Origin: a virus
Taxonomy: Duplodnaviria; Heunggongvirae; Uroviricota; Caudoviricetes
Direction: 5' to 3' (one strand)
DNA length: 5,241 nucleotides
Virus record (IMG/VR): IMGVR_UViG_2703718827_000011
Span: 1 to 5,241 of that record
A model generated the notes under the pieces. It saw only the letters and a program-made list of their open reading frames with translations. It had not been told where the DNA came from and did not search any database. This document shows, piece by piece, positions 1 to 5,241 of this stretch (position 1 is the first letter of the stretch; every line of letters begins with the position of its first letter). The position numbers and the translations under genes are program-made.

Positions 1-1194
1 ATGATCACCGACACAAAGCTCAGGAAGGCGCTCGGCAAGAAAAGAGATGATATCGAGATTATTTCTGATTCGCACGGGCTCAACGCCAGAATCAGCCAGG
101 CCGGAAAAATATCATTTTTCTATCGGTATCGCTGGGCCGGTAAAGCGGTAAAACTCAATGTTGGTGATTATCCTGCAATGAGTATCACCCAGGCAAGAGA
201 GCGTCGCCAACAATTCAGAAACTGGTTAACTGAGGGACTGGATCCGCGAGAGCAGGTGAAGCTGGATAAGCAGACCCGACAGGAAGCGATGTCCGTTGCC
301 GAAGCGTTCAATTACTGGATTGAAAGGCACTGTATCGCTAACGGGCTAGTTAAAGTCGATTACTATCGCCAGGTGTTTGAGAAACATATCGCCGAACCGA
401 TGAAGAATGTCAAAGTCGATAACACAGCGAAAATGCACTGGATCAACGTCTTCGATTCTATAGAAAGCAGGGTGATGGCTCATTACATGCTTTCGCTGTG
501 CAAACGGGCGTTTAGGTTCTGCGTTAACAGAAGTGTGATCGCCTCAAACCCACTCGAGGGATTACTGCCATCTGATGTCGGGCAAAAGCCTAAAAAGAGA
601 ACTCGCAGGATGGACGATGACGATCTGCGCAAAATCTATCAGTGGTTGAAAAGCCATATGTCGATAGAGTCCGTTTTCCTGGTGAAATTTATTATGCTTA
701 CCGGATGCCGTACGGCTGAGATTCGACTTAGTGAGAGATCATGGTTTCGATTGGATGATAATGAGTGGGTCGTGCCTGCGGGCAGTTATAAAACTCGGGT
801 ACATATTAGAAGGGGACTCTCAGACGCCGCCGTTAACCTGGTCAGAAATCACCTCAAGAAAATAAACACCAATCACCTGGTGACTTCACAACGTAAAATT
901 GATGGCGGGATCAAAGATTCGCCCGTTCATTCACCTGTGGCATCCAATTACGCCCGTTCTATTTGGAATGGAACAGGTATGGCAGAGTGGTCGCTTCATG
1001 ATATGAGGCGGACGATAGCCACAAATCTCTCTGAGTTAGGTTGCCCGCCGCACGTAATTGAAAAGCTGCTCGGGCATCAGATGGTGGGGGTTATGGCGCA
1101 TTACAACCTTCATGACTATATCGATGATCAGAAACACTGGCTCCGCGTTTGGCAGAGCCATCTTGAAGAGATCATCGGAGAGCCCTTCAGTTAA
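1..1194 (+). CDS. int: Tyrosine site-specific recombinase (phage integrase, P4/CP4-57-like with N-terminal arm-binding domain)
   Basis: 397-aa ORF starting with ATG at position 1 and ending TAA at 1192-1194. The N-terminus ([49 protein letters not shown]) matches the P4-type integrase arm-binding region from memory. The C-terminus carries the catalytic pattern [11 protein letters not shown] ... [18 protein letters not shown] (R, H-x-x-R, Y). The RBS cannot be seen because the window starts at the ATG. Confidence 0.9.
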
Positions 1195-1388
1195 TTTATC
1201 TTCTTTTTATCCTCCCACTCTTTGATTGACTCAGAGCGCCAGCGGTTAGGGTTGCCGGGCCAGTCAGGGGGTGGGAACGGGCATACGAAGCCCCGAGGCA
1301 TTGTGTCTGCACTTTGCCATGACCAAAGGGTTTTGCGTGAAATTTTGTAGCGACTGGTCAGGTCTGACGTTACCAAAATATCATCCAT
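1191..1388 (-). CDS. AlpA-family DNA-binding protein (phage excisionase / transcriptional regulator, winged-helix)
   Basis: 65 aa from ATG at 1388-1386, preceded by GGAGAG about 5 nt upstream. The ORF-track start at 1433 is a TTG extension. The pattern [16 protein letters not shown]...[30 protein letters not shown] resembles E. coli AlpA (..TIYDWL...FPK...GW.E.EIDEWL). It lies next to the integrase at the distal end of the leftward operon. Confidence 0.7.
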
Positions 1389-1429
1389 AGCTCTCTCCAG
1401 TTGCCCGTTCGGGCCATTCAAAATCTTTT

Positions 1430-1672
1430 TCAACCAACCTGCCCGGGCAGGGAGCGGAGACGGCGCATGCCGGTCATCGCTGTGGCCACGTAGCTCGCCT
1501 TTCGGTTCACCACCTCCACCCAGACTTTCACGCCTTCAACCTTCACCGTATAAGTCTCTTTCATCTTGCTTCGCCCATAGTCGCCATATGTTTGCAAGTG
1601 AGCCGCCAGCGCAACATCGCAAGCGCGGCGACCAATAGGTGATTGCTTACTGCGATTAATCAGCTTCATCAT
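1430..1672 (-). CDS. Hypothetical small phage protein (80 aa), function unknown
   Basis: ORF with ATG at 1672-1670 (tandem ATG ATG; the track's first codon is GTG at 1675). GGGAG sits 7 nt upstream. Stop TGA at 1432-1430, 41 nt before the AlpA-like ATG. Same strand and operon as exo and xis. No family recognised. Confidence 0.55.
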   Translation of the reverse strand: MMKLINRSKQSPIGRRACDVALAAHLQTYGDYGRSKMKETYTVKVEGVKVWVEVVNRKASYVATAMTGMRRLRSLPGQVG

Positions 1673-1777
1673 CACTGCACTCCCAAAGTGGCTACGACAT
1701 CACTCGCTGTTTCGCGGGTACTGCCTTTGCTGGATATAGCCCGGTGCGCCCTGGCCTGCGGTAAAATGGTGTGCGTT

Positions 1778-2395
1778 TCATGCTGCACGCTCTGTGATTT
1801 TCTGAATTTCCGATTCCAGATCTGCAAGGAAGCTCTTAACCTCAGATTCGATTTCGCGCGCCAGCTCTTCATCGAAATGAATCCGCTTCTTGAAATAGGC
1901 GAGGTCAGGCGGCAGGCGATCATCGAAACTAACGAAATCACACCATTTCCGCCCGGTGCACATCATCTGTGCATGCATTTGCAGCATGTACTGGCGCTTT
2001 GGCTCACCAGTTTTCAGCGTTTCAAGATGGGTCCAGGTGTTGGGGCATTTGATTTCGATAAGCCCGTCGTCGTTGACAAGTCCGTCCGGGCTGGCTGCGA
2101 ATCCGGGTATGGTTGGGTGATCGATGAGCCCAACTTCAGTGATTGCCGCATTGAACTCATTCAGCGCGTACATTTCGCGTGCCACTGGCTCAAGTTCAGT
2201 GCCGCGCATCATCGCGGCATTCGAAAACCCTTCCTCCAGCTTCCCGGTCAGCCGTTGGCAAATCAGCTCGGCCATGTAGTTCTGGCGGCTGGTGGAGTAG
2301 CCCGACTTAGTCCGGGCCATGACATCAGCCAGGCGACTGGCTGTGACCTTGCCGCAGCGCGCAGCAAACCATTCAGGGGTGCGTTGCTCTATCAT
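1778..2395 (-). CDS. exo: YqaJ / lambda Exo-type 5'-3' alkaline exonuclease (PD-(D/E)XK), recombination partner of Bet
   Basis: 205 aa. N-terminal RTPEWFAARCGKVTASRLADVMA is the YqaJ-domain signature. The catalytic core GFAASPDGLVNDDGLIEIKCP parallels lambda Exo SPDGLCSDGNGLELKCP. ATG at 2395-2393 overlaps the bet stop (ATGA), with GGAGG 4 nt upstream. Confidence 0.85.
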   Translation of the reverse strand: MIEQRTPEWFAARCGKVTASRLADVMARTKSGYSTSRQNYMAELICQRLTGKLEEGFSNAAMMRGTELEPVAREMYALNEFNAAITEVGLIDHPTIPGFAASPDGLVNDDGLIEIKCPNTWTHLETLKTGEPKRQYMLQMHAQMMCTGRKWCDFVSFDDRLPPDLAYFKKRIHFDEELAREIESEVKSFLADLESEIQKITERAA

Positions 2396-3138
2396 TCAGC
2401 CTCCGTCTCTGCGACATTGACAGGTTCGGCGTTGTCGACAGCAAGACTCATGTCATACATGCGTCGTTTCTCAACTGCGCCGATCACCTGTTTCTCTTCG
2501 GCGCTCAGCGCCACCCAGAACTCCTGATACTTAACGGTTCCAAGGCGCGCGGCGGACTCACCTTTTGCGATCAGTTCCGGGCGGCGGCTATCTGATTCAT
2601 GGCCCGCATGAACCTCTGCCGTTGTTCCTTCAATTACTCGCTCTGCCTCGTCCTGGTCGAAGATGCCAGCGAAACCAAAGGCCAGACGCGCGCACTGGAT
2701 CAGCGTCTTGTGGCGAAGCATGCGGGTAGGGTGGGACTGCCATGGCTGAGTGTTGCGTTTGCACTCTCCCATGTACTCGGTGACGATGGTCGGGTGCTTA
2801 CGGTCTTTGCGGTAAATCTTGCAGGTACACGCGCCTTCCTCCTTGTCGTAAGAGAATTCCATGCCGTCAAACTGAGGATGTTCGTTGATAATGCGAGCCC
2901 ATCCATCAACGCCGACGACCGGGACAATCCCGCCTTTATCTGGAAAGGCATAAATCTCTTTGGTCCATGGGTTCAGGCCGTACTGGTTGGCGACGATTAG
3001 CAGGGCTGTAAATTGCTCGTCCGTGACGTTGCCACCTTTGAACGCTGTATTCTTCAGCGTATTCATCAGGTCTGTACCGGCATCCATGCCGAGGCGTGCG
3101 GCCAGTTTCCCGGCCATGGTGGAAAGTGCAGTACTCAT
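2392..3138 (-). CDS. bet: Single-strand annealing protein, lambda Bet (Red-beta) homologue, RecT/Bet superfamily
   Basis: From ATG at 3138 the protein begins MSTALSTMAGKLAARLGMD and contains LLIVANQYGLNPWTKEIYAFPDKGGIVPVVGVDGW...QFDGMEF...CKIYRKDRKHP...PWQSHPTRMLRHKTLIQCARLAFGFAGI. These are near-identical in long stretches to lambda Bet as recalled. GAGGGA lies 7 nt upstream. The track start at 3153 is a TTG extension. Confidence 0.92.
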   Translation of the reverse strand: MSTALSTMAGKLAARLGMDAGTDLMNTLKNTAFKGGNVTDEQFTALLIVANQYGLNPWTKEIYAFPDKGGIVPVVGVDGWARIINEHPQFDGMEFSYDKEEGACTCKIYRKDRKHPTIVTEYMGECKRNTQPWQSHPTRMLRHKTLIQCARLAFGFAGIFDQDEAERVIEGTTAEVHAGHESDSRRPELIAKGESAARLGTVKYQEFWVALSAEEKQVIGAVEKRRMYDMSLAVDNAEPVNVAETEAE

Positions 3139-3156
3139 TGTTAAATCCCTCAAAAA

Positions 3157-3441
3157 TTAAAACGGGCAGCCGGTACGGTGTTCCCAGTCGTATTCCGCCT
3201 GGGCGTAAGCAACTGCCGAAATGAAATCGTTGTAGGCCTCGCCAGCTTTATCGCTGCGAAGCCCTTCGTATGGGCTGGAGTCTATCGGGATCGTGAAGTG
3301 GAAGAGGCCGGACGGCTCTTTAGGCATCATGTCGATGATTTTCTGCGCCCGGTCGTCGATCCACTTCTCTTTCTCGTCGGTGATCTGCTGCTCAGCCCAG
3401 CGCCGATCTTCGATGCGGTCGTAAGTGAGGTATGCGTTCAT
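3157..3441 (-). CDS. gam: Gam-like host-nuclease (RecBCD) inhibitor, short GamS-like form
   Basis: 94 aa starting MNAYLTYDRIEDRRWAEQQITDEKEK, against lambda GamS [28 protein letters not shown] as recalled. Similar length, and positioned immediately upstream of bet as in lambda. ATG at 3441, with TGAGG 5 nt upstream. Confidence 0.7.
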   Translation of the reverse strand: MNAYLTYDRIEDRRWAEQQITDEKEKWIDDRAQKIIDMMPKEPSGLFHFTIPIDSSPYEGLRSDKAGEAYNDFISAVAYAQAEYDWEHRTGCPF

Positions 3442-3448
3442 GGTTGCC

Positions 3449-4420
3449 TCAGTAATGAATTTTCGCGCAGGGGATCAGGTCATCTTTCAGAGCGGTAAGC
3501 ACTTCGATAGCCTGCTCGCGGGTTAAGCTGGTTTGGCTGGTGAGCGCGTTAACGATGTTGGTGCCGACCGTCTTGCGGTGCTTAACGTCAGCTTCACGCT
3601 TTGCCTGCTCATCGGCGAGGCGCTTCTCTTCGGCCAGGCGGGCATCTTCGGCCTGTTTGGCCTTCAGGCGCTCGGCTTCAACCGCCGCGGCTTTTTCGCG
3701 TTCCGCCCGGGCTTCCGCTTCCTGCTTCTCGCGAGCTGCACGCTGTTCCGCTTCGACGCGCTGGCGCTCCGCCAGTTCAGCGCGGGCTTTCTCTTCGGCT
3801 TCACGGCGCGCTGCGGCTTCAATCTCCGCTTTGTGCTTCGCTTCGGCATCGCGGCGGGCTTGTTCTGCCGCTTCCTGTTTCAGCCGATCATCACGTTCAC
3901 GCTGAGCCTGTTCCGCCAGACGGCGCTGCTCTTCGCGGTCACGGTCAAAATCCTTGTTCATCAGTAGAGCCATTTCGTGGTCCGCTTCGAACTTGGCAGC
4001 CAGCTCCTGATCGAACCTGATGTTCATCTCCAGCGCTTCGGCGTGCATCGCGTTCATGGCTTCTTCAGCCTTAATGCGTTCCTGCTCGGCTTCCCATTCG
4101 GTGAGTGGGCGGCGGGTCGCATCGCGCAGCTCGTCGCAGGCATCAACGAATCGCTTAATTTCGGCCTCAGCCGGACGCACAGCCTCTTTCAGGCGCTTCA
4201 GGTACTCACGGCCCGGCTTTTCGATTGCCGTCTTGCTGCGGGACACCTGCGCTGCCAGAGAGGCAACACGGTCACGGCCTTTCTTCGTGGACAGGTCCGG
4301 CACTTCGTTTACAGCCTGGCGGATTTGCTCAAGGTACGCGTCAAGGCCGCCCGCTACGTAAAGCACTGGGGCCTGTTCCGGCTTGATTTCGATGACAGTT
4401 AAGTCCGTTACTTCGCTCAT
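3449..4420 (-). CDS. Hypothetical protein with a long E/R/A/K-rich charged helical (single-alpha-helix / coiled-coil-like) central segment; function unknown
   Basis: 323-aa ORF with ATG at 4420 and AGGAG 5 nt upstream. Stop TGA at 3451-3449, 7 nt before the gam ATG, so it is co-transcribed. Three parts: an N-terminal region of about 140 aa, a central run of about 130 aa of almost pure E/R/A/K/Q (e.g. AEQARRDAEAKHKAEIEAAARREAEEKARAELAERQRVEAEQRAAREKQEAEARAEREK), and a C-terminal tail of about 40 aa (TVGTNIVNALTSQTSLTREQAIEVLTALKDDLIPCAKIHY). No family recognised. Confidence 0.8.
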   Translation of the reverse strand: MSEVTDLTVIEIKPEQAPVLYVAGGLDAYLEQIRQAVNEVPDLSTKKGRDRVASLAAQVSRSKTAIEKPGREYLKRLKEAVRPAEAEIKRFVDACDELRDATRRPLTEWEAEQERIKAEEAMNAMHAEALEMNIRFDQELAAKFEADHEMALLMNKDFDRDREEQRRLAEQAQRERDDRLKQEAAEQARRDAEAKHKAEIEAAARREAEEKARAELAERQRVEAEQRAAREKQEAEARAEREKAAAVEAERLKAKQAEDARLAEEKRLADEQAKREADVKHRKTVGTNIVNALTSQTSLTREQAIEVLTALKDDLIPCAKIHY

Positions 4421-4490
4421 GGTTTCTCCTGAAATTTGGATGTGCAGATCCCGCCCGCGTAATGCCAGGCCGATCGGTTGAATAGGGTGG

Positions 4491-4688
4491 TTACTGCTGC
4501 GCGATGGATTTCGCCGGGAACTCGCCGTTGCGGATGATGCTTTCTACCGGCCAGCACTCAGCTGACACTTTCTGCTCTGTAGCTGCCAGGCTGCATTCCT
4601 GCTGGCTGTCGTAAACGCCGAGAATGACATCCTGATAATCACCGTTGGTCATTGCCACGGTCAGGACGAGTGCGAATAAAGTTTCCAT
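4491..4688 (-). CDS. Hypothetical small protein (65 aa) with hydrophobic N-terminal segment; possibly a Kil-like host-interfering peptide
   Basis: ATG at 4688-4686 preceded by GGGAGGA about 11 nt upstream; stop TAA at 4493-4491. Sequence METLFALVLTVAMTNGDYQDVILGVYDSQQECSLAATEQKVSAECWPVESIIRNGEFPAKSIAQQ. The ORF-track version (to 4742) is a non-ATG extension. The Kil-like suggestion rests only on position and a loose N-terminal resemblance recalled from memory. Confidence 0.5.
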   Translation of the reverse strand: METLFALVLTVAMTNGDYQDVILGVYDSQQECSLAATEQKVSAECWPVESIIRNGEFPAKSIAQQ

Positions 4689-4936
4689 CAGTGAAGAGTC
4701 CTCCCGATGGCGACGGCGTAAAGGCGTTTTGCTTCTTCCCACGCCGGAGCATTGCGATGGAGTACCGCGAACGACGCGAGCCGTTGGGCCTCTCTGATCT
4801 GCTGCTGATTTACCATGATTACCTCTTAGCCTTATCGCGGCGAACGGAACGGTTAATACAAGACTTCTGCGCTAATGGGCGGTGGATGGCCGCCGGTTGT
4901 CATAACTAAGCCGCCTCGGTGAAGCGACTGAGGTAT

Positions 4937-4961
4937 GAAAAAAGCCGCTGGTTAGGCGGCT
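4937..4961 (-). terminator. Putative rho-independent terminator on the - strand (GC-rich 6-bp stem, 7-nt loop, followed by a U6 tract)
   Basis: The + strand reads AAAAAA-GCCGC-TGGTTAG-GCGGC-T. On the - strand transcript this is a stem-loop AGCCGC/GCGGCU followed directly by UUUUUU. A second imperfect hairpin (CCTCGGT...ACTGAGG, about 4912-4933) lies just downstream on the - strand. Confidence 0.4.
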
Positions 4962-5142
4962 ATTGATTGAAATTAAATGAGCGGGGAGATATTTGGCTTG
5001 CAGCCCTGCAAAATGCGCTATCAAGGAATTGATACTTATGTCGCCACACTCTGCCGCGCTGATCACCATGCTTTGCACAATCAGGTCGGCGCATCATGGT
5101 GAAATGAACCACTGTTTCGCTTGTAGCTTTAGGTTTACGCAT
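4960..5142 (-). CDS. Low-confidence small basic ORF (60 aa from first in-window ATG; frame stays open to the window edge, so the gene may start beyond 5241)
   Basis: ATG at 5142-5140 with GAGGG 7 nt upstream. Stop TAG at 4962-4960 lies inside the terminator stem. Product MRKPKATSETVVHFTMMRRPDCAKHGDQRGRVWRHKYQFLDSAFCRAASQISPRSFNFNQ is R/K/H-rich. Third-position GC is not elevated, so coding status is uncertain. Confidence 0.25.
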   Translation of the reverse strand: MRKPKATSETVVHFTMMRRPDCAKHGDQRGRVWRHKYQFLDSAFCRAASQISPRSFNFNQ

Positions 5143-5241
5143 GCTCTTACCCTCTGTCGTTACCCGCTGATGCGGGAGAAATGCTTTGTGGTGCAGCGCC
5201 GGGTGCTTATCTTCCGGTTGCCGTCGATGCAGCTGCAATTC

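Follow-up and report, generated by a model that had tools for sequence, protein, structure and literature searches.

Gene Content of the Locus and Identity of agt

The DNA analyzed (referred to as the window) is a stretch of 5,241 nucleotides (nt), positions 1 to 5,241 of the IMG/VR virus record IMGVR_UViG_2703718827_000011. Its minus strand carries a gene of 323 amino acids (aa), identified by sequence comparison as a homologue of the agt gene of phage phi80/Lula, which is followed by a gene for a host nuclease inhibitor (gamL) and by two recombination genes. In the three phage clades sampled, the Agt family heads phage recombination modules, and the association of agt with GamL is optional in both directions. 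The features of the agt region are as follows.

3449..4420, minus strand: agt homologue, complete coding sequence, 323 aa plus stop codon (list of open reading frames (ORFs), phi80 Agt homology, PHROG 1376)
4061..4420, minus strand: conserved N-terminal part of Agt, aa 1-120 (alignment; ratio of nonsynonymous to synonymous substitution rates, dN/dS; predicted local distance difference test score, pLDDT, about 88-93)
3941..4060, minus strand: amphipathic continuation of helix 1 (aa 121-160) with a low-confidence break at aa 154-161 (AlphaFold2)
3590..3940, minus strand: ER/K/A-rich spacer of single-alpha-helix type, aa 161-277 (composition, charge pairs, AlphaFold2)
3452..3589, minus strand: conserved C-terminal module, aa 278-323 (77-sequence alignment, AlphaFold2)
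3442..3448, minus strand: 7-nt spacer GGCAACC from the agt stop to the gamL ATG (direct read)
3157..3441, minus strand: gamL, 94 aa, GamL-type host nuclease inhibitor (NCBIfam NF033500, 2.1e-45; PHROG 1050)
2392..3153, minus strand: bet, RecT-family single-strand annealing protein, 253 aa (Pfam RecT, 4e-28; PHROG 252; TIGR01913)
1778..2395, minus strand: YqaJ/lambda-Exo-type exonuclease, 205 aa (Pfam YqaJ, 1e-25; TIGR03033)
4426..4444, minus strand: 19-nt leader CACATCCAAATTTCAGGAG, with the agt Shine-Dalgarno sequence at its end (direct read)

The agt ORF begins with an ATG at 4420, preceded at a distance of 5 nt by an AGGAG Shine-Dalgarno sequence, and ends with a TGA at 3449. Judging from thousands of homologous clusters and a dN/dS far below 1, it is not a chance ORF, and an earlier reading of the same letters (the original prediction) was right to treat it as a gene. 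Several long ORFs (113-144 aa) run antisense to agt on the plus strand between 3533 and 4402. They coincide with the skewed composition of the ER/K-coding DNA (AT skew down to -0.6) and are taken to be by-products of repetitive GAA/GCN/CGN codon usage, not genes. No tandem DNA repeats were found in the ER/K-coding region of agt.

According to the BLASTP analysis, the protein shares 260/323 identities (80%) with phi80 Agt (PHI80_40) over the full length with one gap (E=6e-154), and a tblastn search against phage genomes gave phi80 (JX871397) with 98.7% identity over aa 1-158. Up to about residue 245 the sequences of the two are almost the same; divergence follows, most of all in the last 40 residues. 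The original prediction, which could match the protein to no known family, is corrected by this similarity and by full-length membership of PHROG 1376. In the GenBank record of phi80 (JX871397), PHI80_40 is labelled "agt: anti-toxin for Gam" with the note "Mog (modifier of Gam)", and the gene after agt is labelled [quoted passage not shown]. Close E. coli homologues of Agt are named "hypothetical protein" in RefSeq.

As a single gene, agt has been known by name since 2012. The abstract of the work of Rotman, Kouzminova, Plunkett and Kuzminov in J Bacteriol of that year reportedly describes gamL as an E. coli-toxic gene that caused a gap in shotgun assembly, GamL as an inhibitor of RecBCD and SbcCD, and the lysogens as recD and sbcCD phenocopies. 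The antidote agt, "apparently encoding a modifier protein", is said there to be "found nearby" gamL, and the role ascribed to Agt is reportedly the relief of GamL toxicity, not an anti-defence activity of its own. Literature text searches, whose reach did not extend to Rotman et al. 2012, yielded no paper describing Agt; a discussion of GamL was found only in a survey of lambdoid Rec modules (Genome Res 2025), which predicts that GamL has a Gam-like fold and makes no mention of Agt.

The gene following agt encodes a GamL-type inhibitor (NF033500, "phi80_GamL"). The original prediction had called this neighbour gam; its recognition as an anti-RecBCD gene stands, and its implied assignment to lambda-type Gam does not. 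The place of agt directly ahead of an anti-RecBCD gene, claimed at the same time, is borne out; the operon is the early-left one. The 7-nt gap was also read correctly: the gamL ATG lies at 3441, the spacing allows translational coupling, and the same gap occurs in 49/50 and 31/31 loci with both genes as well as in phi80. A GAGG Shine-Dalgarno-like sequence for gamL overlaps the agt stop codon. GamL of the window is acidic (isoelectric point 4.6) and shows 52% overall identity with phi80 GamL; its first ~45 residues, the part with a weak Pfam Gam match, are almost identical to those of phi80 GamL, and its C-terminal half is strongly diverged. The start of bet lies 3 nt past the gamL stop (3154-3156), and exo and bet overlap by 4 nt (2392-2395), so that agt-gamL-bet-exo is a tightly packed four-gene unit that may be translationally coupled.

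Relatives of Agt and Profile Searches

Agt matches PHROG 1376, a family of unknown function, from end to end (protein 1-323, profile positions 1-362 of 362, E=2.6e-99). A phmmer search with Agt residues 1-160 against 1.84 billion cluster representatives found 4,230 clusters (50% identity level) at a threshold of E<=1e-3, of which 1,236 also pass E<=1e-10. The hosts of the family are phages of Enterobacteria, Pseudomonas, Vibrio and relatives. One member, gp33 of phage Sf6, is annotated as similar to D3 Orf53.

Sequence scans of Agt against Pfam, NCBIfam, PADLOC and the PDB gave no family match, and 85 relatives scanned even at E<=5 gave no consistent family. DUF1351, considered as a candidate remote relative, was unsupported by this 85-relative scan at E<=5, a profile-profile comparison not having been made, and phage 80alpha, checked for DUF1351, contained none. 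No match of Agt with the anti-RecBCD types lambda Gam, GamL, Abc2 and Mu Gam was found in Pfam, PHROG or NCBIfam. Profile searches likewise gave no confident match to a characterised structural or housekeeping family, a result which the original prediction had named as contrary to its reading. Foldseek analysis of the full Agt model against the PDB found nothing below E=3.5, and the significant matches in BFVD were all unnamed. No known domain was fused in ten atypical or long relatives, and the distant relatives found by a profile search were mostly short proteins, many of them marked as partial, whose names were uninformative. Some relatives are named TolA, EnvC or "cell envelope biogenesis protein". 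These names were rejected as mis-annotation in which the similarity is driven by the charged region; neither the TolA anchor, the TolA C-terminal domain nor the EnvC LytM domain was matched by Pfam or NCBIfam in Agt or the 85 relatives.

Predicted Architecture of Agt

An AlphaFold2 run of full-length Agt with an 85-sequence alignment gave an elongated, all-helical model (mean pLDDT 88.8, predicted template modelling score 0.35). The model contains short N-terminal helices, a 108-residue helix (46-153), a helix 162-296 of about 20 nm (pLDDT 81-96), a helix 301-312 and an extended tail; between the two long helices pLDDT falls below 50 over residues 156-162. The three-part helical architecture is a confident prediction of the modeling, and the same layout recurs in the 100 family representatives of 280-420 aa that were checked. 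The two globular-looking flanks of the original prediction are not seen in the model: the N-terminal flank is a short element followed by the 108-residue helix, and the C-terminal "domain" comprises only ~45 aa.

The N-terminal part carries the family motif EVPDLxTxKGRxRIASLAAxVSxSKTAVEKPGRxYLxxLKE...PLTxWE. In the family alignment K78 is invariant, and L26, D42, T45, G48, R49, S54, K63, G70, D96, L98, R103, P105 and E110 are kept in at least 90% of sequences. For copies of agt from GamL-less loci, dN/dS of codons 1-120 is 0.00-0.03 at synonymous divergence (dS) of 0.27-1.1, which places the N-terminal part under extreme purifying selection. The following segment (aa 121-160) is 31% hydrophobic and alignable only among closer relatives.

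The charged segment of ~130 residues noted in the original prediction is confirmed as residues 161-285 (125 aa), of which 75% are E, R, K or A (90% with Q and D added) and 9% are hydrophobic, with no G or P. Opposite-charge pairs at i/i+3 and i/i+4 amount to 0.46 per residue compared with 0.30 +/- 0.038 in 1000 shuffles, and the best a/d occupancy of 0.14 indicates no hydrophobic heptad seam. Together with helix 162-296 of the AlphaFold2 model, these single-alpha-helix (SAH) statistics support the earlier suggestion of an ER/K-type SAH, the segment being predicted as helix and not as disorder. In the ER/K region dN/dS is 0.16-0.29 among copies from GamL-less loci; one comparison made with the gene of the window gave 0.06. 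The length of the charged region varies across the family, and close relatives span 251-363 aa in total through in-frame indels. In the longer members P0205 and P0207 (435-451 aa) the central region is not purely ER/K; by eye, two or three helical segments of ~60 aa (e.g., ...YSxxxxxIxxxLxxLxxxxPxxxxEEF...) stand amid charged stretches, and therefore the spacer may have arisen from repeat units.

The C-terminal module, with which the protein ends, has the consensus DxxHRxxINxxxxxxLxxxGxxExxAKxxxxAIAxGxxxxVxIxY; its final Y is shared by at least 90% of the 77 aligned sequences, and the module occurs in discrete allelic types. Modeled alone, it gives pLDDT 95.9 and consists of two helices followed by an 11-residue tail. 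A likeness of this module to HU/IHF was considered and rejected (hhalign probability 4% over 21 columns; Foldseek 1hue, E=3.5).

Recombination Modules Downstream of agt

Loci with Agt-family genes were collected from three IMG/VR clades, phi80-like (80 loci), Sf6-like (80) and Pseudomonas phiAH14a-like (59). The downstream genes were clustered and the main clusters named with PHROGs; the counts refer to loci with at least 3 kb of downstream sequence (68, 78 and 46, respectively).

GamL was present in 51/68 phi80-like loci and in 0/124 Sf6-like and Pseudomonas loci. Isolated phages with the Agt family and without GamL are Sf6 (gp33), Erwinia phage Midgardsormr38 (gp52) and Pseudomonas phage phiAH14a (gp18); gp33 of Sf6 is followed by cIII, kil, Erf, a single-stranded DNA-binding protein (SSB) and Abc2, and gp18 of phiAH14a directly by Erf and an exonuclease. 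An agt gene 100% identical to that of phi80 was found in a GamL-less locus (L033). In the GamL-less phi80-like loci (17/68; e.g., L017, L020, L033, L043 and L046), a 65-aa phrog_7311 ORF (MNITCECVDMRT...) begins 8 nt past agt and is followed by an Arf-like 52-aa gene, an Erf or Erf-like annealing protein and SSB. The phrog_7311 gene sits in the gamL slot, and no function is known for it.

The start of a recognised annealing-protein gene lies within 700 nt past the agt stop in 162/192 loci. By clade, this was the case for 59/68 phi80-like loci, for 70/78 Sf6-like loci, where it comes after cIII, kil and an Arf-like gene, and for 33/46 Pseudomonas loci, where it follows agt immediately at a gap of 4-10 nt. 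The downstream annealing proteins belong to four separate clusters (Bet/RecT, phrog_2449, Erf and phrog_1097), and some modules contain an exonuclease, others SSB instead.

The closeness of the annealing gene, above all in Pseudomonas, is consistent with Agt being a recombinase accessory, a binding partner of the annealing protein or exonuclease that would serve to load or scaffold them. Such a role is very improbable, given that four annealing-protein clusters are met downstream of a nearly invariant Agt N-terminal part, that the C-terminal type of Agt does not track the annealing-protein cluster, and that the exonuclease is replaced by SSB in part of the modules.

The Leader and Natural agt-Less Alleles

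In a reverse test, 68 loci were taken that encode GamL 95-100% identical to that of the window and have at least 1.1 kb of upstream sequence. An Agt-family gene lay upstream in 30/68, always with the 7-nt gap, and was missing in 38/68. The complete phages HK639 (GamL 93.6% identical) and Klebsiella ST11-VIM1phi8.1 likewise contain gamL with no agt upstream, a finding that covers the region from the putative pL to gamL in HK639 and from cI to gamL in ST11-VIM1phi8.1. Natural agt-less alleles are therefore common.

In 28/38 agt-less loci, gamL stands directly behind an unaltered leader motif, CCAAATTTCAGGAG (the 19-mer core), and in 3 further ones behind this motif differing in the last base. 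Each of the 132 loci fetched contained a single copy of the full 19-mer, placed 6 nt ahead of the agt ATG or, where agt is absent, 8 nt ahead of the gamL ATG. Since the leader is shared by agt and gamL in this manner, agt is a cassette of ~979 bp inserted between leader and gamL. The leader was also observed in L241, L247, L253, L261 and L303 at 2975-2993, and directly before gamL in HK639. It acts like a lambdoid "boundary sequence" marking a clean polymorphism of agt presence and absence.

This arrangement bears on the possibility of a cis effect, in which gamL, lying downstream of agt, would have to rely on coupling or re-initiation for its translation, with a reduced GamL dose as the result, Agt itself having an unrelated job (host takeover, anti-defence). 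The 7-nt spacer and the overlap of GAGG with the agt stop codon would suit such an effect, as would the placement of gamL in agt-less loci directly behind the leader and the AGGAG that otherwise serve agt; relatives carry ral, kil and cIII in the same part of the early-left operon. We nevertheless regard the cis effect as improbable. Alleles with gamL behind the AGGAG leader and no agt persist in many prophages and in HK639, and because of this a high GamL dose from the leader appears tolerable. Moreover, the term "modifier" chosen by the phi80 annotators implies an effect of the protein, and no PADLOC or anti-defence signature was found.

Pairing of Agt and GamL Types

Both C-terminal types of GamL circulate and combine freely with both C-terminal types of Agt. 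All four combinations were found, in 29, 11, 6 and 4 loci, and no covariation between the Agt C-terminal type and the GamL type was detected in these 50 loci.

These data concern the possibility that Agt is a dedicated antitoxin whose main function in this phage would be to sequester or partly mask GamL through direct binding, in the manner of a type II pair. The phi80 labels "anti-toxin for Gam" and "toxic without Mog" point that way, and the two genes are adjacent, with the constant 7-nt spacer. Since GamL is acidic and predicted to be Gam-like (Casjens-group prediction), a protein surface whose usual ligand is nucleic acid or a host factor could bind it. The pairing, however, is not obligate on either side: 38/68 GamL loci and HK639 lack agt, and GamL is found in none of the 124 loci of the other clades. 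An Agt identical to that of phi80 persists in GamL-less locus L033, the C-terminal types occur in all four combinations, and N-terminal dN/dS stays at about 0.01-0.03 in GamL-less loci. A rod of 37 kDa would also be an atypical antitoxin, having no recognisable DNA-binding regulatory domain; Pfam and NCBIfam gave no domain of the type II antitoxin kinds (helix-turn-helix, ribbon-helix-helix, AbrB) in Agt or the 85 relatives. A dedicated antitoxin is therefore considered rather unlikely.

Other Features of the Window and Its Mosaic Origin

The remainder of the window, a phi80-like early-left arm, contains the following genes.

1-1194, plus strand: integrase gene
1191-1433, minus strand: excisionase gene
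1430-1675, minus strand: DUF4060 gene
4491-4742, minus strand: DUF1482 gene (PHROG 1092)
4960-5238, minus strand: phrog_17199 ORF

Bases 1-1744, with the int, xis and DUF4060 arm, show 99.9% identity with phi80, for which reason the window is regarded as a mosaic relative of that phage. The similarity breaks at a mosaic junction near position 1744. Past it, phi80 has a damL pseudogene, an extra ORF, a 226-aa Exo and a 305-aa RecT, and the window has the 205-aa YqaJ-type exonuclease and the 253-aa Bet. A prophage in E. coli ET245 is 99.9% identical to the window; in RefSeq, its gamL is named and its agt homologue is a "hypothetical protein".

The DUF1482 and phrog_17199 genes upstream of agt are small and conserved, and have no assigned function. 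Between them lies a terminator-like GC hairpin (4943-4961) followed by a T run; in Sf6, an annotated terminator, tL2A, stands at the equivalent place upstream of gp33. No sigma-70-like promoter was found between 3000 and 5241.

Proposed Function of Agt and Its Significance

Because agt and gamL can each occur without the other, Agt is tentatively read as an adaptor with a GamL-independent function, the tempering of GamL being one effect of it; we place this preferred reading just short of evenly balanced. The invariant N-terminal part would bind a conserved component other than GamL and the phage annealing protein, the likeliest candidates being a host DNA-end-processing or repair factor, or DNA itself. 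The ER/K helix may serve as a spacer of ~20 nm that tolerates changes in length, and the C-terminal module may bind a second, more variable partner and so provide exchangeable specificity. An adaptor or spacer role had been suggested in the original prediction, with a putative bridging or sequestering of a host complex, and would fit the modeled three-part architecture. The relief of GamL toxicity in phi80 would be one effect of the adaptor, for example, by keeping the inhibition of RecBCD/SbcCD partial, which fits the label "modifier of Gam"; it would not be the reason why the Agt family exists. This mechanism is one that we infer, and the antidote function is carried over by analogy from the phi80 annotation and the abstract of Rotman et al.

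Several points weigh against the adaptor reading. In lambdoid early-left operons, a constant order of genes can stem from modular layout and not from shared function. The locus counts are not independent events, because the IMG/VR loci within each clade are closely related. The partners of Agt are likewise ones that we infer, and no binding partner has emerged; nor did any fold or profile match in Pfam, NCBIfam, PADLOC, the PDB or Foldseek offer a functional clue. Finally, the sole functional claim found for any member of the family is the GamL-antidote annotation of phi80, which a dedicated antitoxin explains more simply.

At the level of the family, it is quite possible, if somewhat doubtful, that Agt proteins represent an undescribed class of rod-shaped adaptors heading recombination modules, in which the N-terminal part would target a host repair or DNA-end component (RecBCD, SbcCD or a partner of theirs being candidates), the swappable C-terminal module would add a second specificity, and the phi80 antidote effect would be a side-effect. 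It is the family that holds the value here, being very large and having no Pfam model. The comparative data mean that a GamL-antidote role cannot be its general role. If the N-terminal part does target a host repair factor, this would be a new way for a phage to tune RecBCD/SbcCD and not to block them. GamL/Agt pairs could serve in recombineering where lambda Gam is too toxic, and the natural agt-less alleles provide ready-made controls for work on GamL and Agt.

Comparison with Known Systems

The charged segment resembles the ER/K SAH domains of myosin VI and zuotin in composition, in the enrichment of i/i+4 charge pairs, in having no hydrophobic seam and in being predicted as one long isolated helix. 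The profile search of the PDB with Agt accordingly found charged helices only, zuotin with E=0.02 and, weakly, myosin VI with E=0.25. The likeness is one of form, not homology, and unlike in those domains the helix is a putative monomer, whose 26% alanine leaves an Ala-rich coiled coil possible.

With type II toxin-antitoxin pairs, the locus shares a neighbour annotated in phi80 as neutralising a toxic product, as well as adjacent and maybe translationally coupled genes. It differs from them in that the pairing of agt and gamL is not obligate and that the "toxin", GamL, is an inhibitor of host nucleases and not a growth-arrest enzyme.

The closest system is phi80/Lula itself. Agt is of almost the same length in both (323 aa in the window, 322 aa in phi80) and is encoded in the early-left operon 7 nt upstream of gamL; in the phi80 locus (L001), agt occupies 4001-4969 and gamL starts from 4977, which gives the same gap as in the window. 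In contrast, the last ~40 residues of Agt in the window belong to another allelic type than those in phi80, the two GamL partners share only 52% identity, and exo and bet are of different types. The more distant relatives of PHROG 1376 in Sf6 and phiAH14a differ from Agt of the window in having no GamL and in an N-terminal identity of 39-57%, whereas the family, including Sf6 gp33, is like Agt in its end-to-end profile match, its three-part architecture and its place at the head of a recombination module.

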